Positions 12,325-23,712 of a DNA stretch of 64,000 bases are shown here, piece after piece. The stretch is from Oceanispirochaeta sp. GTDB taxonomy: Bacteria; Spirochaetota; Spirochaetia; DSM-2461. The DNA lies in NCBI GenBank assembly GCA_963663385.2, contig CAXXXD010000004.1:288001-352000 (forward strand), read 5' to 3'. The notes below the pieces were generated by a model. That model searched no databases. It was not told where the DNA came from and saw only the letters and a program-made list of their open reading frames with translations. The translations under genes were made by a program, and so were the position numbers. Position 1 is the first letter of the stretch; the number at the start of each line of letters is the position of its first letter.

Positions 12325-12384
12325 GGCTGAGAAAAGATATGGAGGTTTCCTACCATTCTAACGGATCAATGATCTTTATATCTT

Positions 12385-12717
12385 CTACCTTTTTAAGATC
12401 TCTTTGTCTGCTGTAACCAGAGTCAGATCTTTTTCGATAGCGGTAGCCACGATAATTGCGTCGGGAATTTTCAGTCCATACTTTTTCCGGACGAAGATAG
12501 ACCGCTCAGTAATGTCTCCGTCTGTTTCAAACTCAATCAGGTCACTGACAAAACGTCGAATCATAAATTCCTGATCTTCATTATTCTTCCCGCAACTCAG
12601 CTCTATATGAGAAATAAAGGAGAGATATAATTCATCTTCAAAAGAAATCTTTTCAAAGAGAGGGAAAATGCCTTCAAGGCAGTATACAACAGCGTTGGTA
12701 TCCAACAGATATCTCAT
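12385..12717 (-). CDS. vapC: VapC-like PIN domain toxin (C-terminus probably frameshifted)
   Basis: YLLDTN, IEL, KIPDAIIVATA, LVTAD motifs. Confidence 0.85.
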   Translation of the reverse strand: MRYLLDTNAVVYCLEGIFPLFEKISFEDELYLSFISHIELSCGKNNEDQEFMIRRFVSDLIEFETDGDITERSIFVRKKYGLKIPDAIIVATAIEKDLTLVTADKEILKR

Positions 12718-12959
12718 CTGTTATCCCATTCTTTTCGTAATTTCCTCTGGTATTCGACTCCATCGACACCCCAACCTTTTAATGATCCCTGAAGCGCCTT
12801 AAGTCTTTTAAAGCGGGCTTTTCTGTCTTCAGTACCTTTCGGGCGAACGATGATTGTTACATCCTGAGGATCAAGAGGAAGATCTTTATCCTCGATCACC
12901 AGGTGATGATTCTGGTCGATACGTCCTGATAACTCATAATTTTCCATTTCCAATGACAT
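12714..12959 (-). CDS. Putative antitoxin of the PIN toxin
   Basis: 81-aa ORF overlapping the toxin start (ATGA). C-terminal DGVEYQRKLRKEW; AGGGG RBS. Confidence 0.7.
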   Translation of the reverse strand: MSLEMENYELSGRIDQNHHLVIEDKDLPLDPQDVTIIVRPKGTEDRKARFKRLKALQGSLKGWGVDGVEYQRKLRKEWDNR

Positions 12960-13109
12960 ACTTGTTCCCCTTGGGTCCTTTAACATTAATATATCACTTT
13001 TACACCTGTTCTTACAGGATGGCTTCAAACATGTTACATTATTATTTACAGTTCGCTGTAAGCGCAAGCCCACTCCTGCGGTCGTTAAGAGGGACATACG
13101 TTGTTTTTT

Positions 13110-13216
13110 TCAGAACCGGAGCCACGACGGCGGAGGGGCGGCCTGCGGTACCTGCCGGAAAGACTTCTTCAACGTGAAATGTTATTCCGGCGAAAAATGA
13201 AATTGGGAATCATAAC
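13110..13216. repeat. 107-bp direct repeat copy 1
   Basis: Colinear with 22237-22343; 12 mismatches in 107 by manual alignment. Confidence 0.93.
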
Positions 13217-13268
13217 AAGAATGTTGCTGCCGTTTCCCTTCGGTCACAGCAGAACAATGGTGTTATGA
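13210..13268. repeat. attC-like 59-bp hairpin 1
   Basis: TCATAAC-N6-GTT(G)CTGC...GCAGAAC-N6-GTTATGA, 4 bp past the immunity gene stop. Confidence 0.7.
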
Positions 13269-13272
13269 ATAA

Positions 13273-13593
13273 CTAAATCTCTTTGATAGTGGACTTGGAA
13301 GGACTGCTCCAAGATATTTTTTTATATTTACCTTTAATCTTTCCTTTTTCGCGATATTCCTCAAACTGCTCGGAAGGACTCCAGTCTTTACCAGCAGAAA
13401 AATACACATCCAAATCGTTTAACTTAATAAATTTTTCAATTTTATCTTCTGTATCAGAATATGGTATAGACCAATATTCTGGGTAATCACTATCTATACT
13501 TGCTTCTAATTCCAATAGTTTTGTTTCAAAAGATTTTGTGACATTTTTTATATATATCTTATCAGTTACAAAAACAACATATGGATTAATCAT
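13273..13593 (-). CDS. Putative immunity protein for Rhs-CT1
   Basis: 106-aa AT-rich ORF directly downstream of the Rhs tip, with a GGAGG RBS. Confidence 0.7.
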   Translation of the reverse strand: MINPYVVFVTDKIYIKNVTKSFETKLLELEASIDSDYPEYWSIPYSDTEDKIEKFIKLNDLDVYFSAGKDWSPSEQFEEYREKGKIKGKYKKISWSSPSKSTIKEI

Positions 13594-13607
13594 CGATTTA
13601 TTCCCTC

Positions 13608-14594
13608 CTATCTTGTTGGAATTGAATTAATAATCATTTCTGGTCCTCCACCGGGAAGTCCTTTTCCTCCACCTTGAAAGAACTCATTTCCACCAGCAAT
13701 AGGACTTCTTGGAGCCATCTCTTTTATACCAGAAACTTCAGTAATTCTAAATCCATTCCCTAAGGTCCCGGGATTAAGGCCTAATACTTTCTCCAATGCC
13801 ACACCTTGCTGTTTTGAATTAAAAGAACCAGGAGAGAAGTTCCCTATTGCACCTGTAAGCGCTTTTTTATCTGTTATATAAGTTCCAGAACGCCCAATGG
13901 AATCAAATTCTTTAAACCATGATTCAGGAGATACGTTATATCCGACGTTCATTTCTAACATATTTTGCTGTCTAGATGTAAAGAGATTTTTTAGTGAAGG
14001 GTTATTAAAAACACTATCTGCATTAAGGCCACCCACTCCCAGCATACATAGATCAAGAAAGGTTCCGACTGCTAGTGACTTAGCATCTCCTGGGGGTAAA
14101 TATTCTCCATTGGGTCCGTGATAACCAGAATCCCAACCATTTGTCATTCCATTAACAAGTGCACCAACGCCAAGCCCCATATCATAAAGTAGCTTTTCAA
14201 ACGGTCCAAGTGCTGGCATATAACCACTAGCTTGTGGCCCTGCCGGTGTTACTTCTCCTAAGTTCTCTGGAGCTAATGGATCATTGGGTTTATCATCACC
14301 ATCGTCGTCATCATCTTTCTCTATAGGTCGTTTAGAATCTGAATCATATTCACCAGATTCTTCACTAGATAATCCAAAGATCAACCCCGTCGGATCTACA
14401 TATTTAATAGGATTGTTCGAGGTGTAAACATACCAGTTTTGCCCGTCTCTAGCCGGATCTTCAGATATAAATCTCCCCGTATCCGCATCATACCACCTAG
14501 CATTGTAGTAATAATCACCCTCTCCCCCTAAATCGTTGCAAAAAGGAGACCTGCAAGGAGGCGTTGAAACTGGAATTTCTCTAGTAGCTGTCAT
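13608..14594 (-). CDS. Orphan Rhs core + C-terminal putative toxin (CT1)
   Basis: YYYNARWYDADTGRFISEDP...NNPIKYVDPTGL core followed by a variable tip. The first 27 aa are not Rhs-like and the start is uncertain. Confidence 0.85.
   Translation of the reverse strand: MTATREIPVSTPPCRSPFCNDLGGEGDYYYNARWYDADTGRFISEDPARDGQNWYVYTSNNPIKYVDPTGLIFGLSSEESGEYDSDSKRPIEKDDDDDGDDKPNDPLAPENLGEVTPAGPQASGYMPALGPFEKLLYDMGLGVGALVNGMTNGWDSGYHGPNGEYLPPGDAKSLAVGTFLDLCMLGVGGLNADSVFNNPSLKNLFTSRQQNMLEMNVGYNVSPESWFKEFDSIGRSGTYITDKKALTGAIGNFSPGSFNSKQQGVALEKVLGLNPGTLGNGFRITEVSGIKEMAPRSPIAGGNEFFQGGGKGLPGGGPEMIINSIPTR
14432..14513. repeat. 82-bp Rhs-core direct repeat copy 1
   Basis: 72/82 identical to 23589-23670 by manual alignment. 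Confidence 0.9.
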
Positions 14595-14611
14595 GGTACG
14601 TTAATAAACTA

Positions 14612-15631
14612 TCATTTACCTATCTTACGGGCAAGCGCTTTTCTATTCTTCTCTCTTTGCTTCAGACTGTCCCGAACCAGAGTTTCCAGTGAATCAAGAT
14701 AGGAGTCGGTCACCTCGGCGAAATGGAAATTCTCCCTGGGATGGTACTGCCTGTAGGAAGCCTTGATGTTCTCTTCGCTTTGCCGGGAGTAAACCACCGT
14801 GGTTTCCACCGATTCATGCCCCAAAAGCTCCTGAACATAGCGGATCTCCGCCCCGTGGGCCAGAAGATGGGAAGCACAGCCGTGCCGGAGGGAGTGGACG
14901 GTCAGCCCTTTCCGGTAGAGTCCGCACTTTTCACTCAGCAGTTTAAACCGTTTGTTGATCCCTCCGTGAGTAAACCGGTAGCCCCCGGAAAGGATCAGAG
15001 GCCTGTGGTGTGCTTTCACGCCTTCCAGATACTTATCCAGAAACCAGGCGGCCGCCTTGGTCACTGGGACCCGGCGGTCCTTGGAAAACTTGCTCTGGTG
15101 GATCCACAATAACCGGCTGGCCGGATCGTAATCTTTCACATCCAGATGGGCCGCTTCGGAAGACCGGAGACCGGAAGAGTAAATCAGTTCAAACAGGGCC
15201 CTGTCCCGGAGCCCCAGGGGCTGGTGAATATCGATGGAATCCAGAAAGAGTGCGGTCTCGTCCTCACTCAAAACTTCTTTGATCCGCTCCTGCCGTTTCC
15301 CGAAGCGGACTGTCTCCACCGGTGAGGACAAAACCAGGTTGTTTTCATACAAACAGAGATAGAACTTTTTCACGGAGGTGAAAATACTCATCCTCGTTGA
15401 GTCCTTGTAGCCCCGTCCTCTCTCTCCGGGATGCTCCTGCAGCCAGGAAAGGAAGGAGACAATATCACTCCTTTTCACATCCCGGATGTCTTTCGTGCCA
15501 GTTTCATCCAAAAAGGTAAAGAAGGGGGTAAGCTGAGCTTTCTTTGTCCGAATAGTTCCCTCTTTAAATCCCTGGGCCTTCAGGTATCCGGCGAAAAGGG
15601 AAAGGGCTTTCTGCCTTGAGAGTCTTTTCAT
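14612..15631 (-). CDS. Tyrosine recombinase (XerC/D-like) 2
   Basis: YSSGLRSSE, HSLRH, LLGHESVETTVVY catalytic residues. ATGA overlap with the upstream recombinase. Confidence 0.93.
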   Translation of the reverse strand: MKRLSRQKALSLFAGYLKAQGFKEGTIRTKKAQLTPFFTFLDETGTKDIRDVKRSDIVSFLSWLQEHPGERGRGYKDSTRMSIFTSVKKFYLCLYENNLVLSSPVETVRFGKRQERIKEVLSEDETALFLDSIDIHQPLGLRDRALFELIYSSGLRSSEAAHLDVKDYDPASRLLWIHQSKFSKDRRVPVTKAAAWFLDKYLEGVKAHHRPLILSGGYRFTHGGINKRFKLLSEKCGLYRKGLTVHSLRHGCASHLLAHGAEIRYVQELLGHESVETTVVYSRQSEENIKASYRQYHPRENFHFAEVTDSYLDSLETLVRDSLKQREKNRKALARKIGK

Positions 15632-16674
15632 CTCCTTTTTCCCAGCTGTCTGGGATGGTGGCGGTCCAGCTGCTCCTTTACCTCTTTCACATCCACTTTG
15701 GTGTAAATCTCGGTGTTCCCGATGGCCCGGTGCCCCAGGATCTGCTGAATCTGCCTCAAGGGGCAGCCTTGTTTCAGAAGATGGTAGCCCAGACAGTGCC
15801 GGAGGCTGTGGGCTGTCATAAAAGGAATTCCGACTTCTTCGCAAGCCTCTTTCAGATCCCTGTTGAAAGCCTTTCCCAGTTCATCCGAGGAAGAGCCGAA
15901 AAGCCTTTCCCTGTTGCTCTTGCCGGTCAGGATCTCATCCCGAACGGTTAGAAACCGCCTTAATACACTGGCGGCGTAGTCGTTCAGGTAGACCTTCCGG
16001 TCGAATCCTCCCTTGCCGGAGATAACGGTGATCTCTTTCCTTTCAAGATTCAGGTTCTCTTCCTGAAGGTCAGCCGCTTCGCTGATTCGGAGGCCCGAGG
16101 CGTAAAGCAGCTCGGCCAGCACATGGGTCAAATACCGCCTTTTCCGGGCTTTCAGTCCCTTCACGGCAGAGAAGTCCGCCAGACGGGAGAGAAGCCGGGC
16201 CAGTTCTTTCTCCATGGGTAAATCCCTGGGAATGATCCTTTCACCCCGGGGAGCTTTGACGGCGGTAAAGGGATCGGAAACAAGCTTTCCCGAATCCCTC
16301 ATCCACCGGCTGAAGGAGGAAGCGGCCTGACGGTAGGAAGCCAGGGTGTTTACCCTGTAGTCTTCTCCGCTTCCGGTTCCCCGTTCTGTAAGGTGTGCCA
16401 TGAAGCCTCTGGCCGCCCGGATGTCCGTCTGATCCGCCGTCAGTCCTTCTTCTTCCAGATAGGCCAGAAAATGGGGAATCCGGCTGTGGGCGTTCCGGAG
16501 AGCCTGGGAAGAAGCTCCCAGGGCTTTTTTCTCTTCCAGATAGCTGTCTAGCAGGGTTTGATGGGCTTTATGTATGTTTCCTGCGCTTCCGGACACTTCC
16601 CTTCGGGAAGTTCCTGCCGCTTTATGAGAAAAGGAACCCTGACGCTCTCGCGTCAGCCTTTTATCATTATTCAT
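15628..16674 (-). CDS. Tyrosine recombinase (XerC/D-like) 1
   Basis: LYASGLRISE, GKG, HSLRH, ILGHRAIGNTEIY. Confidence 0.93.
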   Translation of the reverse strand: MNNDKRLTRERQGSFSHKAAGTSRREVSGSAGNIHKAHQTLLDSYLEEKKALGASSQALRNAHSRIPHFLAYLEEEGLTADQTDIRAARGFMAHLTERGTGSGEDYRVNTLASYRQAASSFSRWMRDSGKLVSDPFTAVKAPRGERIIPRDLPMEKELARLLSRLADFSAVKGLKARKRRYLTHVLAELLYASGLRISEAADLQEENLNLERKEITVISGKGGFDRKVYLNDYAASVLRRFLTVRDEILTGKSNRERLFGSSSDELGKAFNRDLKEACEEVGIPFMTAHSLRHCLGYHLLKQGCPLRQIQQILGHRAIGNTEIYTKVDVKEVKEQLDRHHPRQLGKRR

Positions 16675-16800
16675 GCTCTGTCTCTCTCCGGGATTTTGTA
16701 CCCACTTTCTCCTAAACCTTTACCGGATTTAACTTTAAGCCGAATAGTCGGCCTGTACCCGGTTTTCCCACTTTCGGCTAATCCCTTACCAGAACAACAA

Positions 16801-19461
16801 TTATTGTTTTTCATCATTCCGTACCCGCTTTGTACCCGGTTCCCTGGTTAAATGGTCAGGTGAAGGAATCACCGAGTCATCGAAAAGAACTAGGTCAGAA
16901 TCAGCCGCCAGTCCGTAACGCCTGGTCATACCCCGGCCCGATCCTTTGCTCCGGATGTATTCATACTCTGTCAAAAGCCTCATATTCTTCTTGATCAGCT
17001 CATGGGAGAATCCGGAGACCTCCCGGATCTCCCGCTGGGTCACCCAGATATCGGTCAGGAATAGCCCGTCCTTCTCCGCTTTGCTTTTAAGAAGATCCCG
17101 GAGCTCCTCATACAAAATGACAGCCGAACGGGGTAAAGTGGTCATGGTGGAAGAAAGCAGGGTCTTCATGATCCGGTAAGCCACCTTGTAGTCTTCCAGG
17201 TCGCACTCTATGTAATGCTTCCCCTGATCATTCTTCTCCTGTTTCTGGTACTGCCTCAGGAAGCACACGCAGGCAATGAGGTCTACAAACCGTTCATGGT
17301 CCCGCCGGCTCCGCATCATGGAAGAGGGAAAGTCCAGCTCCCCGGCGAAAGGATTAACAATTACCCGGTTTTTCAGGAGCCTTTGGGCGGCCTGGTGGGT
17401 CTTAATGATTTCCGGGAGATCTTCTTCCTTCTTCCGGTAGGCTTCCAGGGTGTACTTCTCCCTCTGCCTCCGGTGGATCTCCCTGGTCTGCTCCCGGCTC
17501 TCGTCTGTGTTTACCACAAAGCAGCGGGAGGCGTTCTCCGGGTTGATCTCCGTCGAAGTGGAGGACATCACGGCGGAAACAATGACTTTTTTCCGTACCA
17601 GCTTGCTGGTCATTCTTCCGGTCTTCTCATCCTTGGTGGTCACCAATCGGGACAGCTCTTTTCCGGATAACATCTCCCGCATCTGATGATCTACGCTCTC
17701 CGAGTGGACCGCCTCTCCCATGACCAGAAACTTGTGCAGCAGAGCTTCATCGGGAAGGTAGTTCAAGGCCTGGTCGGAAAGGCTGGTCATGGAAATCACA
17801 TCCTCTTCGGGCATCAGCTTTTTTACCGTATCGATCAGAAAGCTTTTACCAGCGGCGGACTGGGAGATGACGATTACGCTTACCGGATCGGCCATCAGAC
17901 GGGAGGAGGCGGCCAGGTACATAAGGATCTTGTTTTCCTCCTCTCCCACGTAGCCCAGAGCTTCCGTATCCCTGACAATCCTGTCGAAAAGATTGGGATC
18001 CTGTAAAAGGGAGAGGCCAGCTGCCTCTTCCTCAGGGGTCAAAGACCCCTTCTTTAAACCGGTATCCGAAAGGGCCCGTTCAGACTCTTCTTCCAAATAG
18101 TCCAGGATATCCAGTAAATCCTTTTCAATCCTGGCGGATTCCTCGCCGAACCGGCGAGCGACCGCGACAGAGAAAAGGGTCCGGCTCCGGGCGGAGAAGA
18201 GGTCTACATTGTCGATGAACTTGACAGTATCATCCGCCGGCCTCTGACAGCGGACATTCACCTTCAGGGAACTGACAAATCCTTCTTTAACTCCGATGAT
18301 CCGGTAATCCAGAGAAGAACAATGAAACAGGTACTTACCATCGGCCACCAGTGGCCTTTTATCACCCTCCGGCGGTTTCAGAATGCTGCTCTCGATCAGG
18401 GATAGAACTTGTTCCTTTGTGATTTTTGGTAATGACTCATTCCAGTCCTTGGAAGGCGGGAAGATGGTTCTGACGGCAATACCCTTTTCGAAAAGAGTTT
18501 TTCCGACCTTTTCTGCAGCCTCCCGGCCCGCTTCATCACCGTCGAAAGCAAGGACAACTTCCTTTGTACGGTTTTCTTTCAAAGCTTCTACAAGGTGACT
18601 GGTCACCCCGTTGGCGCCGTAAGAGCAGGAAACATTTTCGCATCCCAAAACCATCAGCGAAAAGGCATCAATCACCGATTCTGTCAGGATCATCCGGTCC
18701 GGGTAAACCTTGAATGCCTGGTGGTTAAACAGGCCCCGGTGGGGCCCTTTCAAATAAAGGTGTTTCACCCTGGACCTTTCATTTATCTTCCTGCCGTAAA
18801 ATCTCCGGACTTTCCCATCGGAAGAATAGAGTGGGAAAACAATGCAGTCCCGGAAGGTTTCAAGGTTCTTTTCCGTAAAGAGGCCCGCCTCTTTCAGCTC
18901 CTGAAACTGGACTTCGGACAGTTTGTCTTTCAAGTCTCCGGGGCAGTAGCCGACTTTCAGCCGTCCCAGAAGCTCCGGAGCATAGATCCCCCGTTTTTTC
19001 AGGTAGGAAACTGCTTCCGGATGGGAGAGCTGACGGTGATAGTAATCCGTTACATCTTCCAATGAGGTTGTTTTAAGCAGAGGTTCGCCCTCCAGTGGCA
19101 CCGGCGGAGCCGGTACCTCCTTCGGCCTGAATGCCTTTCCCTCATCTCCTTTCAAGATAGCCAGAGCCTCTTTAAACTCCACGCCCTGGTGCCTCATCAC
19201 AAAGTCAAACACATCCCCGCCGGCCCCGCAGCCGAAACAGTGAAACAGTCCCTTGGACTGGTCCACCGAAAGAGAAGGATTCTTGTCCTCATGGAAGGGG
19301 CACAGCCCCATGAAAGAAGAGCCTTTCTTCTCGAGAGAGATACCATAGGAGGTAATCACACTGACTATATCGGTTTGTGCCTTGATCCGGTCTTTTTCAA
19401 ACTCGTCCAGCAGGGAAGCCCCCTTCAAAGGGCTCCTGCCTTTCAGCTTTGAAGAAGTCAT
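16801..19461 (-). CDS. DnaG-like primase (CHC2 zinc finger + Toprim) fused to a C-terminal P-loop ATPase/helicase-like domain
   Basis: CPFHEDKNPS...CFGC, TESVIDA, FDGDEAG, SQSAAGKS. ATGA overlap with parA. Confidence 0.9.
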   Translation of the reverse strand: MTSSKLKGRSPLKGASLLDEFEKDRIKAQTDIVSVITSYGISLEKKGSSFMGLCPFHEDKNPSLSVDQSKGLFHCFGCGAGGDVFDFVMRHQGVEFKEALAILKGDEGKAFRPKEVPAPPVPLEGEPLLKTTSLEDVTDYYHRQLSHPEAVSYLKKRGIYAPELLGRLKVGYCPGDLKDKLSEVQFQELKEAGLFTEKNLETFRDCIVFPLYSSDGKVRRFYGRKINERSRVKHLYLKGPHRGLFNHQAFKVYPDRMILTESVIDAFSLMVLGCENVSCSYGANGVTSHLVEALKENRTKEVVLAFDGDEAGREAAEKVGKTLFEKGIAVRTIFPPSKDWNESLPKITKEQVLSLIESSILKPPEGDKRPLVADGKYLFHCSSLDYRIIGVKEGFVSSLKVNVRCQRPADDTVKFIDNVDLFSARSRTLFSVAVARRFGEESARIEKDLLDILDYLEEESERALSDTGLKKGSLTPEEEAAGLSLLQDPNLFDRIVRDTEALGYVGEEENKILMYLAASSRLMADPVSVIVISQSAAGKSFLIDTVKKLMPEEDVISMTSLSDQALNYLPDEALLHKFLVMGEAVHSESVDHQMREMLSGKELSRLVTTKDEKTGRMTSKLVRKKVIVSAVMSSTSTEINPENASRCFVVNTDESREQTREIHRRQREKYTLEAYRKKEEDLPEIIKTHQAAQRLLKNRVIVNPFAGELDFPSSMMRSRRDHERFVDLIACVCFLRQYQKQEKNDQGKHYIECDLEDYKVAYRIMKTLLSSTMTTLPRSAVILYEELRDLLKSKAEKDGLFLTDIWVTQREIREVSGFSHELIKKNMRLLTEYEYIRSKGSGRGMTRRYGLAADSDLVLFDDSVIPSPDHLTREPGTKRVRNDEKQ

Positions 19462-20264
19462 AGACCGCACCGGGATAAAAGTTCATTCCCCAGAGCCCTT
19501 ACTTCCTCCGCGGGCCTTTTCCATTGGTTACCGGACAGCTGGACCAGGCCCTTCCTCTCGGCAATGGCTTCCTCGATCCGGATCGACCGGCTGATCACGG
19601 TCTCAAAACAGGTTTCTCCGAAGAACCCGGTCAGTTCGGCTTTCAGCTCCCGGCCGATCAGGGTAACCGGGTTGTAGCTGTTAAGGACGACTCCCAGGGC
19701 GTAAAGAGTCGGGTTCAGGCTCCGCCTGATCTTCTCCATGGTTTCCAGAAGGTCCGAAGCTCCCTGCAGGGCGTACTGACTGGCTGTAATGGGCATCACA
19801 AGGTGATCGGCGGCTACAAGGGCATTGCCCGTGAGGATTCCCAGGGAAGGGGGAGTATCCATCAGGATAAAATCGTAGGATTCGAACTCCTCCCGTTCGA
19901 AAAGCTCCTTAAACCGTACATAGCCGTCGAACTCTCCCACAAGCTGTTTTTCCAGCAGGCTGAGATAGATCGATCCGGAAAGGATCTCAAGATTCTCACT
20001 GACACTTTGAACGTGAATTTCATCTTCTGTAATGGCCTCGTACAGTCCTTTTCCCGGCTGGTCGAAGAAACTTCTGGAAAGGTTGCCTTGGCTGTCACAG
20101 TCTACCAGAAGGGTTTTCAGCCCTTTATCATGGGCCAGGTAACAGCCCAGTTCTCTTGTCATGGTGGTCTTGCCGACCCCGCCTTTCTGGTTGGTAAATA
20201 CGATCTTTTGGCGACTAAGAATGGGGCCCTGATGCTTTGCATCACCCATTTTATCTAGATTCAC
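19458..20264 (-). CDS. parA: ParA family ATPase
   Basis: NQKGGVGKTT, VDCDSQGN, DTPPSLG. Confidence 0.92.
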   Translation of the reverse strand: MNLDKMGDAKHQGPILSRQKIVFTNQKGGVGKTTMTRELGCYLAHDKGLKTLLVDCDSQGNLSRSFFDQPGKGLYEAITEDEIHVQSVSENLEILSGSIYLSLLEKQLVGEFDGYVRFKELFEREEFESYDFILMDTPPSLGILTGNALVAADHLVMPITASQYALQGASDLLETMEKIRRSLNPTLYALGVVLNSYNPVTLIGRELKAELTGFFGETCFETVISRSIRIEEAIAERKGLVQLSGNQWKRPAEEVRALGNELLSRCGL

Positions 20265-20517
20265 ACTGGGCCTCCTCTTCCTTCTTCCAGAGGAGGTTCC
20301 GGATCACTTCCAGAGTCTCGGGGATCTTCTTCAAAGGAGTCCGGCAGGTACCCAGAAAAAGTTTACGGTCTCCGGTAATGTTCTCTCCTTCCAGAGTGAA
20401 AACCATCTCCTGGGCTCCCAGGGTTCCCATGCTCAGGTAAACATCGACCAGCCGGTGGTGCTGATCCAAAAGGTAGGCGACTTCGGCCAGGTTGGCTGTT
20501 ATGAGGCTGTCTTTCAC
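20251..20517 (-). CDS. Small hypothetical protein, paralogue of the upstream ORF
   Basis: GTG start overlaps the upstream stop (GTGA); motif TANLAEVAYLL. Confidence 0.65.
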   Translation of the reverse strand: MKDSLITANLAEVAYLLDQHHRLVDVYLSMGTLGAQEMVFTLEGENITGDRKLFLGTCRTPLKKIPETLEVIRNLLWKKEEEAQCESR

Positions 20518-20798
20518 TGGTGGCCCCCTTTCATGCTTTTCCGGTAGTCCCGCTTGGCATTGTTGGCGTAGTTGTTGATCTCTCCGTAACAACGGCGGAA
20601 GAGAACCAGATTGACAACCGCTTCACTTCTCAAAAAGTCGCTTTGAAGATGAGGAATGACTTCTCCTTCGAAGTAGAAGTCGCAGATGATATCTTTGGTG
20701 ACGTTCCCGGCCAGAAGGCGGCAGGTAACCAGGTGGGGCGTTACCCCTTTAGTCAGGTAGTAGGCGGCCTCGTACAGGTCGCTGGTGCGGATTTCCAT
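20514..20798 (-). CDS. Small hypothetical protein, first gene of the element's replication operon
   Basis: 94 aa, GGAG RBS, motif TSDLYEAAYYL. Confidence 0.7.
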   Translation of the reverse strand: MEIRTSDLYEAAYYLTKGVTPHLVTCRLLAGNVTKDIICDFYFEGEVIPHLQSDFLRSEAVVNLVLFRRCYGEINNYANNAKRDYRKSMKGGHQ

Positions 20799-21041
20799 TC
20801 TTTACTCCATCGGAAGGAGCAGAACGGCATTTGCGGGGATAAGAATTTATGGTAGAATTGTAAGTGCATGGAGTTCTACTCCTATGTTGTTTTTAAGCCT
20901 GTTTCCCGAAGGTCGCCAAACACTCGGAAACGGGCTTTTTTATTGCCAACGGCAATATTTCAAAAGTGTGTCAAGTAGCATTTGACTGTTTAATAATGAC
21001 ACATCATGTATCACTCGTCAAGTTATATGATAAGATAAATC

Positions 21042-21437
21042 ATGCCTCAAGTACCGAAGAAAGAATTACCCCCTTTAAAAATCAGTGACAAAAGCATTGG
21101 TGAAATCATTGCCAAAATAAGAAAACAGAGAGGACTTACACAGCTTGAATTGGCTGAAACAATTGGCATTACAAGAACCGCATTATCTGCCTATGAAAGC
21201 GGAAGAGTCCGACTTTATGATGAAATGATAGCAAGATTCGCCATTGCTCTGAATGTCTCGACTGACACTCTTTTCGGGCTGAAGGATGAAAATATTCTTG
21301 CACAGGATACAAATCTGAAACTTACAAAACGCCTGAAAGAACTGGAAGAACTCCCACCGGCAGACCAAAAAAAAATCCTTGAGCATATCAAGGATTTGAG
21401 AGCCATGAATGAATTAAAGGAAAATCAATCCAAATAG
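21042..21437 (+). CDS. XRE-family HTH transcriptional regulator
   Basis: IRKQRGLTQLELAETIGITRTALSAYESG; divergent from the replication operon. Confidence 0.92.
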   Translation: MPQVPKKELPPLKISDKSIGEIIAKIRKQRGLTQLELAETIGITRTALSAYESGRVRLYDEMIARFAIALNVSTDTLFGLKDENILAQDTNLKLTKRLKELEELPPADQKKILEHIKDLRAMNELKENQSK

Positions 21438-21489
21438 ATATTCTTTCGATATCCGGCTATTACAAAGAGAATGAGAAACCTAACCCTGC

Positions 21490-21783
21490 TTACTGCTTAC
21501 TGCATTCCATATTCATCTCTTTTCGAAGTAAATCATTCAGCAAAGTCTGATACCCTTTACCATGACTTTTTAGCCAAAGAAGAATGTCCGCATCGATTCG
21601 GGTGGTTATCTGCTCTTTCCTGGGCTTGTAAATATCGTGAAAAGGGACGGCCCTGGAAAAATCCTCATCAGACCACTCTTTTATGTCACTGGTATCTATT
21701 TCGGAGTCGGGTAATTCGGCAAGCTTGGCGAGTCTTGCCTTTGTGTCTTCATCCATAGGACTAAAACCATTTTCCTGCTTCAT
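21490..21783 (-). CDS. brnA: BrnA-like antitoxin
   Basis: IDTSDI, KEQITTRIDADILLWLK, GYQTLLN. Confidence 0.88.
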   Translation of the reverse strand: MKQENGFSPMDEDTKARLAKLAELPDSEIDTSDIKEWSDEDFSRAVPFHDIYKPRKEQITTRIDADILLWLKSHGKGYQTLLNDLLRKEMNMECSKQ

Positions 21784-22048
21784 ACTTCCTCCTCTCTGCC
21801 GTTGTTGCTTTTCGGGCAGATATTATTCTGAAAACGTCTTCATCCTGCTGATCTCTCATGGTGTAAACCACAAGCACCAGCAGAATGCCGCCGATATGCC
21901 CCATAATTTGCTGACGGGGCTCTGAATCCGTGTAATCCTCACGAACCAGGGCAAACGGGTCGGCAAAAACATACTTGGCGTCTTTGAATGACAATCCGTG
22001 TTTCTTCTGGTTGATTATGTCTTTTTCTTTATCCCATTCAAAGGTCAT
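21761..22048 (-). CDS. brnT: BrnT-like toxin
   Basis: FEWDKEK...NQKKHGLSF...RIISARKAT. Confidence 0.9.
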   Translation of the reverse strand: MTFEWDKEKDIINQKKHGLSFKDAKYVFADPFALVREDYTDSEPRQQIMGHIGGILLVLVVYTMRDQQDEDVFRIISARKATTAERRKYEAGKWF

Positions 22049-22236
22049 AATATAATTATACTATTGTAACTACATTTTTGCAATTATGATAAAAAGAGAA
22101 AACACTCCGCCAGCTCCTGTATAAAATTATTCTGGAATCTATAAACTTACCACTAAAAGCAGGTGAACAGAGAATTCGTTATATGGCGAAGCGGACAGCT
22201 GCCAGGGACGGCAGCTGCAGATAACGGATTTTCTGA

Positions 22237-22343
22237 TCAGAACCGGAGCCACGACGGCGGAGGTTCGGCCTGCGGTTACTGCCGGAAAAGCTTTTTCAAC
22301 GTGAAATGTCATTCCGGCGAAAAATAAAATTAGGGGTCATAAC
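22237..22343. repeat. 107-bp direct repeat copy 2
   Basis: Colinear with 13110-13216. Confidence 0.93.
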
Positions 22344-22394
22344 AACAGTGCTGCACCAGACAGGCAAGCCTGCAGGTGAGCATGGACGTTATGA
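22337..22394. repeat. attC-like 58-bp hairpin 2
   Basis: TCATAAC-N6-GCT(G)CACC...GGTGAGC-N6-GTTATGA, 2 bp past the immunity gene stop. Confidence 0.7.
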
Positions 22395-22396
22395 AT

Positions 22397-22858
22397 TTAC
22401 GGAATGTGAGAAAAAGCATCTTTAAAGGTTTTATTCTTATAATCCCAATTAAATGTCTTAGTATCTCCTACAGAATTTCCAGAGGCAAAATAAGGAGTTA
22501 AAACTATACCCGGAGAATATTCTTTATTATTTGGGTAAGACAATTTCATCTTAAATCCATAAAAGATTAACTCATGATTCTTAAATGATATCAAGATTTT
22601 CCCTGTTGCATCTTCAAGTATATCATCATGAAAATAAATTACATGATCCCGATTAATATCAGACTTCAGAACACCTATGAAGCTTTCACATATGTCTGAA
22701 TCAGAATAATAATCAGTGTAAATCTGAACAATGTCATCATCTATTATTAATTCGAAGTCAGCAGACTTTTTATTTAATAATATTATATCATCAGAAAATA
22801 TTACTGATGAAAATAAAAGGATTTGTACTGTTATTAGAAAAATATTCCTCAATCCCAT
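22397..22858 (-). CDS. Putative periplasmic immunity protein for Rhs-CT2
   Basis: Overlaps the toxin 3' end; N-terminal signal-peptide-like segment; AT-rich. Start could be 22873. Confidence 0.7.
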   Translation of the reverse strand: MGLRNIFLITVQILLFSSVIFSDDIILLNKKSADFELIIDDDIVQIYTDYYSDSDICESFIGVLKSDINRDHVIYFHDDILEDATGKILISFKNHELIFYGFKMKLSYPNNKEYSPGIVLTPYFASGNSVGDTKTFNWDYKNKTFKDAFSHIP

Positions 22859-23712
22859 AAAATATAACCCCAATTGTAGTTTTTATTTATCTTTTTCTTT
22901 GCATATTGATCTAAGAAGCCATTTTCAACCATATTAATTTTACCAGCATTTGATGATGGATGAACTTCTCCTGCTTCTGTAACTGTCGTAACATGATCGT
23001 AAACACCATCACCATCCCAATCATAAAAGTTTTGAGAACCCACTCCACCATTTCCCGGTTTCAGTAGGTTAGGATCATTGGCCATTTCATCAGCAGTTCG
23101 ATCACCAATACCAACACCACTTACTGTTTCAGCTGAAATCATAGATGTCGAAGAACAGTCTAATCCTTGTCCTTCAGGTGATGGAGTTTCTCCACCAGAA
23201 TGATAATTACCACCTACAAACGATTTCGCTGTTTCGGCCAAACCATTGTTAAGGATTTCATCAACCGTTTCAGATATTTCATCATATGCAGCTTCAGTTA
23301 TATTATCCATTATCTCATCTTCAACTGCTTGAATCTGTTCATTAAGCCGATCTATATTTCGGTCATTATCCATACCGGAATTAATCAGATCATCTTTTTT
23401 ATCTTTAAGATCATTTCTTCGATCTTCTCTGCCTTGTGCATCTCTTCTATCTTTTCTATCGCTTTTCTTTTTTTCATATTCCGTATTTCTCTGCTCTCGA
23501 TCTCTTTCATCATCAGCACTATCGCCATCAACACGGCGCATTCCTGTAGGATCGACAAATTTTAGAGGGTTGTTTGATACATAATTGAACCAGTTTTGGC
23601 CGTCTCTAGCCGGGTCTTCCGATATAAACCTTCCGGTCCCCGCATCATACCACCGTGCATTGTAGTAATAGAGTCCGGTATCTTCATCCAGATCCTTTCC
23701 GGTATATTTCAT
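22849..23712 (-). CDS. Orphan Rhs core + NlpC/P60-like C-terminal toxin (CT2)
   Basis: KYTGKDLDEDTGLYYYNARWYD...NNPLKFVDPTGM core; the tip has GLDCS...DHV...H. Confidence 0.85.
   Translation of the reverse strand: MKYTGKDLDEDTGLYYYNARWYDAGTGRFISEDPARDGQNWFNYVSNNPLKFVDPTGMRRVDGDSADDERDREQRNTEYEKKKSDRKDRRDAQGREDRRNDLKDKKDDLINSGMDNDRNIDRLNEQIQAVEDEIMDNITEAAYDEISETVDEILNNGLAETAKSFVGGNYHSGGETPSPEGQGLDCSSTSMISAETVSGVGIGDRTADEMANDPNLLKPGNGGVGSQNFYDWDGDGVYDHVTTVTEAGEVHPSSNAGKINMVENGFLDQYAKKKINKNYNWGYILWD
23589..23670. repeat. 82-bp Rhs-core direct repeat copy 2
   Basis: 72/82 identical to 14432-14513. Confidence 0.9.

Follow-up and report, generated by a model that had tools for sequence, protein, structure and literature searches.

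We describe here two attC-like hairpins and the mobile element around them in a 64,000-nt stretch of the genome of Oceanispirochaeta sp. (assembly GCA_963663385.2, contig CAXXXD010000004.1, positions 288,001 to 352,000, forward strand), called the window in what follows and numbered from its first letter. The element carries a DnaG-like primase, two tyrosine recombinases named IntA and IntB, and an Rhs toxin tip with its immunity-like open reading frame (ORF), and it appears to integrate site-specifically into the core of rhs genes, displacing the resident tip. Each hairpin stands directly behind an immunity-like ORF and, judged by covariance models, is a homologue of the host's own integron attC sites, lying backwards relative to the gene that it follows. 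With somewhat less than even confidence, we read these backwards, attC-derived stem-loops as a likely second, single-strand crossover site for swapping Rhs tip/immunity modules. The fixed Rhs target is better supported than the hairpin result, and is perhaps also the more important of the two.

The hairpins and their immediate surroundings are the following:
13210..13268, + strand: hairpin 1, 59 nt, type A; the + strand corresponds to the native attC top strand, with 9 nt from AAC to the bulged G
22337..22394, + strand: hairpin 2, 58 nt, type B, inside the 9,157-bp mobile unit
13110..13209, no strand: palindrome-rich conserved spacer adjoining hairpin 1, copy 1 of a 118-nt repeat
22186..22336, no strand: palindrome-rich conserved spacer adjoining hairpin 2, copy 2, which is longer; mosaic across copies
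13273..13593, - strand: immunity-like ORF 1, 106 aa, putative function from position, no family match
22397..22873, - strand: immunity-like ORF 2, 158 aa, putative function from position

An initial annotation, made from the letters alone, had described two hairpins of 58–59 nt, and we recovered both as drawn: each has 6-nt spacers and inner stems with one extra G, and the outer pattern TCATAAC...GTTATGA occurs exactly twice in the window, with 0.02 copies expected and two or more copies in 0 of 100 shuffles. All four strands of the two hairpins fold better than shuffled sequence (z −2.8 to −4.2), the gene strand slightly better than its complement (z −3.5 and −4.2). On the minus strand, both sites present the same order, that is, an Rhs-core fragment with a variable tip, then a small ORF, then the hairpin, and these ORFs end 4 nt (site 1) and 2 nt (site 2) from the hairpin, in agreement with the 2–4 nt claimed, with “immunity” assigned by position only. 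Overlooked at that time was a direct repeat of 118 nt (87% identical) that continues from each hairpin and is followed by a toxin-antitoxin (TA) pair, of the PIN type behind site 1 and the BrnT/BrnA type behind site 2. A covariance-model scan of the window found no second, inverted partner hairpin. A GC-rich second palindrome is present at 22186–22231, with GTTAT and ATAAC ends in reversed order, and the homology to the site on contig C2 of this genome (G000:C2) stops at its left end.

The kinship to attC was evaluated against the integron of the host itself. The genome encodes an IntI at G000:C2:1687729-1688955 (381 bits, cut-off 265), with attC arrays elsewhere, so the “no IntI” of the initial annotation holds for the window and fails for the genome. 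Our native set comprises 31 distinct TAAC/GTTA-ended sites of 97–197 nt, from 15 stretches near IntI or in arrays of 8 genomes; in all 31, AAC and the bulge are 8 nt apart and the opposite arm also has 8 nt, and 30 of 31 carry the G on the gene strand. A covariance model built from 22 native sites, with no family hairpin among them, ranks the two window hairpins first in the window, on the + strand, with E-values of 3e-5 and 1.5e-4 and one inserted base per arm, and recovers 8 further family sites in 8 other loci (default filters lost most matches, and switching them off regained them). The suspected kinship is thereby borne out, and the non-canonical traits noted before divide in two: the spacing is indeed shifted, at 9 nt versus the native 8, whereas the bulge is on the “wrong” arm because the attC homologue lies backwards relative to the gene. 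One hairpin, that of locus L094, has been entered by a group II intron at the same box and on the same strand, shifted by 3 nt; this intron is 75% identical to the one found in the native attCs of this genome, and, according to the accessible text of PMC3001079, such introns insert into attC bottom strands. The chromosomal arrays themselves lie at C2 ~1651–1687 kb, C3 ~727–745 kb, C4 ~1178–1197 kb and C1 ~30–38 kb, and their attCs have a top-strand G and 5/5 spacers; one group II intron (at least 9 copies) and insertion sequence (IS) elements have invaded them heavily. Another genome, G413, holds an array of near-identical cassettes (L323:10657-17254) at ~399-bp spacing, with no long ORF before the attC.

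The hairpins possess the R box, the L box, the unpaired spacer and the extrahelical base of an attC fold, and yet their box geometry is not that of the host (9/9 in the window sites and 9/9 or 9/8 in 41 of 47 distinct family sites, against 8/8 in the native ones), both window sites are backwards to the gene instead of in cassette orientation, and there is no integron or CALIN (cluster of attC sites lacking an integron integrase) platform, the two sites being 9.1 kb apart with a whole element between them and the IntI on another contig. On orientation, host geometry and platform, judged from sequence, these attC-like sites are thus neither gene-cassette nor integron members.

We tabulated 51 sites of this hairpin family, 47 of them distinct, leaving out L393, which has no G at the bulge position, and L394, both weak matches at class level. 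The distance from AAC to the bulge is 9 nt in 42 of the 47, a geometry that the family model itself favours, versus 8 nt in the native sites. The core triplet is free to vary: AAC/GTT in 25 distinct sites, including both window sites, AAG/CTT in 12, AAT/ATT in 5 and others in 5. The initial annotation had made its case depend on structural conservation in homologues, and this is what we found, since double changes keep the pairing at 7 of 15 pairs among 14 sites (covariation 0.39 versus 0.11 shuffled) and occur at 9 of 15 pairs in another 23 sites; the core position is among these, with C-G, G-C and T-A, and no native attC shows such changes. Because the core triplet varies, strict pattern scans found nothing outside the genus (0 of 80 metagenome loci, 0 of 50 genomes), a result that the covariance model corrected. 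With a model of 14 hairpins, 15 of 38 genomes of the taxonomic family gave matches, some of these being native attCs.

As for context, all seven of the seven Rhs-core fragments in this genome have a hairpin behind the next ORF, and 26 of the 51 sites lie backwards within 40 nt of the ORF following an Rhs tip, 7 of these 26 even supplying its stop codon. Where a genome lacks a full IntB, family hairpins can also be seen behind immunity genes that belong to longer rhs genes. Hairpins may be paired as well, in inverted orientation: the pairs of G421 and G406 enclose a TA pair, those of G401, G409 and G405 a short palindromic spacer, and that of L094 an intron and a gene. Hairpins with AAT/ATT cores stand in direct orientation behind immunity genes at L388, L389 and L377 (G422, G426), and solo hairpins at G000:C3:1355532-1355591, L385:5586-5646 and L383:2176-2234 lie in host intergenic DNA with no nearby Rhs gene or recombinase and share a short tail.

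The remaining features of the element and its surroundings are as follows:
12327..23712, no strand: whole island, between ftsK and a cyclic-nucleotide-gated channel gene, approximate ends; 3 of the 5 relatives that were examined have these host genes side by side
23657..23667, - strand: 11-bp stretch of the Rhs core, left unit junction, putatively attL-like
14500..14510, - strand: the same 11-bp crossover stretch (YYNA codons), right unit junction, putatively attR-like
22849..23712, - strand: Rhs core remnant and toxin tip 2, the unit-borne tip, identical from 23667 on in a second locus
21490..22048, - strand: BrnT/BrnA TA pair behind hairpin 2, family match
21042..21437, + strand: XRE-type helix-turn-helix regulator, family match
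20251..20798, - strand: two small conserved ORFs, 113 and 94 aa, no family match
19458..20264, - strand: ParA-family ATPase, family match
16801..19470, - strand: DnaG-like primase with CHC2 zinc finger and Toprim, long C-terminal part without Pfam match
15628..16674, - strand: tyrosine recombinase IntA, 348 aa, catalytic motifs present, without the IntI insertion
14612..15631, - strand: tyrosine recombinase IntB, 339 aa, catalytic R-K-H-R-H-Y present, without the IntI insertion
13608..14594, - strand: Rhs core fragment and toxin tip 1, probably the displaced resident tip; the ORF starts within element DNA
12385..12959, - strand: PIN toxin (family match) and probable antitoxin (no family match) behind hairpin 1

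The clearest evidence on how the element moves comes from comparing the window with a second copy at G000:C3. Between them, no base differs over the 9,168 bp that run from 23667 to 14500, with the first mismatch at 14499, and the host flanks and downstream tips outside this identity differ; therefore, both junctions fall in one 11-bp stretch of the Rhs core that encodes YYNA, and the mobile unit amounts to 9,157 bp in the order tip 2, immunity-like ORF 2, hairpin, TA pair, XRE, ParA, primase, IntA and IntB. Hairpins as the ends of the mobile unit were ruled out, given that both junctions are in the Rhs core and hairpin 2 lies within the unit that moved. Among 52 distinct junctions, most start their Rhs similarity at the YYNA codon, either behind IntB or at unrelated host DNA, which in such cases mimics the GLY codons preceding the crossover, and a minority retain rhs sequence further upstream. 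The short shared core, the copies at several loci and the host flank genes found adjacent in 3 of 5 relatives are those of an integrative element. The machinery is present in three near-identical copies in the genome, and its two machinery-bearing contig ends are one tandem array, because 2 of the 4 relatives having that gene have the flanking host genes side by side; the read depth of ~2.3–2.5 times single copy against three assembled copies does not decide anything. No circle joint was found in the Logan contigs of four sequencing runs, contigs which drop rare forms.

At 14511–14594 and in its homologues, the displaced tip is preceded in frame by a start codon and a purine-rich stretch, both provided by the element DNA before the crossover, and orphan displaced tips may, on this reading of the frame, still be translated. 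In a deleted element at L241:7957-8275 (G401:C3), an inverted hairpin pair joins the 3' end of intB after a few bases. At L216:1000-1180 (G000:C1), an XRE remnant with an internal deletion adjoins the C1 module, a hint that modules standing alone are elements in decay.

Neither recombinase is an integron integrase. IntA and IntB score 90 and 103 bits with TIGR02249, for which the cut-off is 265, with the alignment split in two pieces, and both leave a gap of ~30–40 residues at the IntI-specific insertion when aligned to the host IntI, as the initial annotation had stated. IntB scores 174 bits with PRK01287, below the cut-off, and its fold model (predicted local distance difference test, pLDDT, 84; predicted template modelling score, pTM, 0.57) finds its best fold matches in XerA, IntI, Tn1549 Int and XerD, so that the predicted fold does not separate Xer-like from IntI-like enzymes.

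The element is not confined to this genome. The order primase, IntA, IntB and Rhs fragment recurs among 80 metagenome loci, with IntB identities of 36–47%, and in several spirochaete genomes; close relatives are ~95% identical, and a single metagenome scan confirmed at least 524 relatives of IntB. A phage origin was rejected, the best viral matches being generic recombinases with 23–40% identity, as was a plasmid origin, for which the best matches reach only 29–32%. Titles and the beginnings of abstracts, with most subscription papers outside this search, contained no description of a primase/tandem-recombinase element targeting the Rhs core or of attC-like sites placed inverted behind immunity genes; for Proteobacteria, comparable gene sets may already have been described. 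Related primase elements at L043 and L047-L051 (G345, G061, G354, G114) form tandem arrays with a single recombinase, the ParA being sometimes downstream of it, and two copies of the element at L045-L046 (G216:C4:1050-1059 kb) are inverted and divergent. At L065:7540-15353, four Rhs tips follow IntB, each after a repeated copy of the pre-crossover sequence, with no hairpins.

How could the hairpins take part in the exchange of modules? In the mechanism that we tentatively favour, the circular element would integrate at the 11-bp Rhs-core stretch, placing its own tip in frame behind the resident Rhs and displacing the old tip to a position behind IntB. Two folded hairpins would then recombine at the box distal to the immunity gene, most likely through the IntA/IntB of the element, and this crossover together with the one in the core would exchange the tip, the immunity gene and the hairpin body between the element and the chromosome; inverted hairpin pairs may likewise exchange the TA module lying between them. 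Recombination at the hairpin and the enzyme responsible are here inferred from sequence. At the immunity-distal box, two flank types and two body types occur in all four combinations within ~10 shared bases, and in four site pairs with unlike hairpin bodies the flank homology extends right up to the distal box, a shuffling that hints at a crossover point in this box. IntI, according to the accessible parts of PMC5027507 and PMC2727003, cleaves the AAC of the arm lacking the bulge. The opposite polarity suggested for the distal box, together with the shifted spacing and the free core triplet, would point to the recombinase pair of the element, an attribution to which we give a little under an even chance. 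We regard as possible, though doubtful, the wider proposal of a two-site machine, in which a primase element has domesticated attC hairpins, re-spaced and with private core triplets, and a non-IntI recombinase swaps tip, immunity and TA cassettes.

Several observations weigh against a hairpin crossover made by the element. The latest transposition used the Rhs core only, and no hairpin recombination product is found among the sequences; IntA and IntB lack the insertion that reads bulged bases, a role played in IntI by a specific helix (PMC3053210). The spacer is a patchwork, and therefore homologous recombination could produce the same shuffling of flanks and bodies. A fit to the model shaped the 23-site alignment (A7), and sequences that share ancestry do not count as independent; some of the covariation may moreover have been imported, as the inner stems are similar to several distinct subtypes of native attC. 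Besides the 26 backwards sites, 3 of the 51 are in direct orientation and 22 in other contexts, many of the latter being inverted partners or standing alone. The hairpin model matches just 6 of 151 genomes of the class, and the hairpin is found in 1 of 100 distant element loci, many of which end before the immunity gene, and at 1 of the 16 immunity-gene ends read in 11 distant loci. Finally, for the co-occurrence with recombinases or intI that the initial annotation had proposed as a check, 13 of the 14 hairpin genomes have an IntI and only 6 a full IntB, although IntI is common anyway (24 of 38 genomes).

A strong rival, which we consider less likely, is that the hairpins are working attCs on which the chromosomal IntI of the host acts in trans. 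The immunity-gene strand would then be the recombinogenic bottom strand, with the crossover in the box next to the immunity stop codon; altered core triplets would keep the hairpins in private pools apart from the integron array, and the unit between hairpins 1 and 2 would be excised, leaving tip 2 behind and carrying tip 1 away. Homology and strand agree with the native attC, an IntI is present in this genome and in 13 of the 14 hairpin genomes, spacers of 5–6 nt and a non-essential AAC are permitted (accessible text of PMC5027507), and a C as the bulged base is tolerated by some IntIs (PMC3053210). One hairpin body adjoins many unrelated immunity genes, with identity ending at the box, the same locus and hairpin type in G401:C10 and G402:C2 has a different tip and immunity gene, and TA pairs are found in both orientations, all of which would suit such an enzyme. 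However, native sites are uniformly 8/8 with AAC/GTT, unlike the shifted hairpin family; complementarity to the other box persists in the bases after GTT, which in native arrays are variable; and two near-identical machinery copies carry unlike hairpin bodies, an outcome that a crossover on the side of the immunity gene would not produce. The broken L255 site of G407, taken up as a candidate IntI crossover, was rejected, as it abuts an IS end.

It is also possible, and in our estimate a little less likely again, that no site-specific recombination occurs at the hairpins at all, these being captured attC relics or protein-binding or structural landmarks, while modules are exchanged by Rhs-core integration and by homologous recombination in the 110–160-bp spacer. 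All clear recent junctions do lie in the Rhs core, distant elements do without the hairpin, the spacer mosaic has many breakpoints, and some sites are decayed or struck by an IS or an intron; on the other hand, the double changes in the outer box and the constant 9 nt, kept with several kinds of stem and beyond a single genus, imply that an attC-like fold is under selection, and the shuffling is confined to ~10 shared bases at the distal box. Very improbable, in our view, is a function as RNA, in which the hairpin would end the tip/immunity transcript as a terminator or serve at its 3' end as a nuclease site or stabiliser: the hairpins do begin 0–35 nt past the stop codon of the immunity gene, and of the two strands that of the gene has the slightly better fold, but neither hairpin contains a terminator-like site (GC stem, short loop and T run), which also removes the simple terminator that the initial annotation had named as its counter-explanation, nor has an Rfam match. 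In addition, unpaired 6-nt spacers and an invariant bulge are attC features, the double changes are Watson-Crick swaps, and the partners in inverted pairs follow no gene.

The question of how Rhs tips change has stood open ever since Jackson et al. 2009 (PMC2935791) put forward the displacement model, in which an incoming tip displaces the resident one, leaving a core fragment and tip downstream, an arrangement also present here. That model had proposed a circular intermediate and relied on homologous recombination, no integrase being known, whereas the present element has a fixed target of 11 bp, two candidate enzymes and a gene set of wide occurrence, making site-specific tip exchange directly testable. 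In the accessible text on bee-gut Rhs-associated integrases (PMC5727410), integrase-like genes stand beside Rhs tips, with a suggested role in capture, and no sites, element structure or hairpins are described. If IntA/IntB do use the hairpins, folded-strand recombination would extend beyond IntI and Xer, with AAC, AAG and AAT as natural orthogonal cores; if instead IntI uses them, the integron would reach outside its array to shuffle toxin modules.

Integron attC sites (accessible parts of PMC5027507, PMC2727003, PMC3053210 and, for spirochaete integrons, PMC3607928) share with the hairpins the R and L boxes, the unpaired spacer, the bulged base, the variable loop and the 54–87 nt length, besides the direct homology to the host attCs, the position at the stop codon and the one attC-type group II intron hit. 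They differ in that the hairpins lie backwards to the gene, have an extra base before the bulge and a core of AAC, AAG or AAT, and occur singly or as inverted pairs rather than in direct arrays, with no adjacent attI or IntI.

Other known systems resemble parts of this arrangement. In pdif modules, inverted site pairs surround TA genes, and in CTX-type attP a folded single strand is the substrate of an Xer-like recombinase pair; both rely on the host XerC/D acting on dif-like 11-bp arms, which in such sites flank a 6-bp centre, whereas here the arms, derived from attC, are 7 bp long and the recombinase pair comes with the element itself. The recombinase-associated immunity arrays (rAID) of Bacteroidales combine orphan immunity genes with repeats and a XerD-like recombinase; unlike them, the tip/immunity pairs described here ride on a primase-encoding element that targets the Rhs core.

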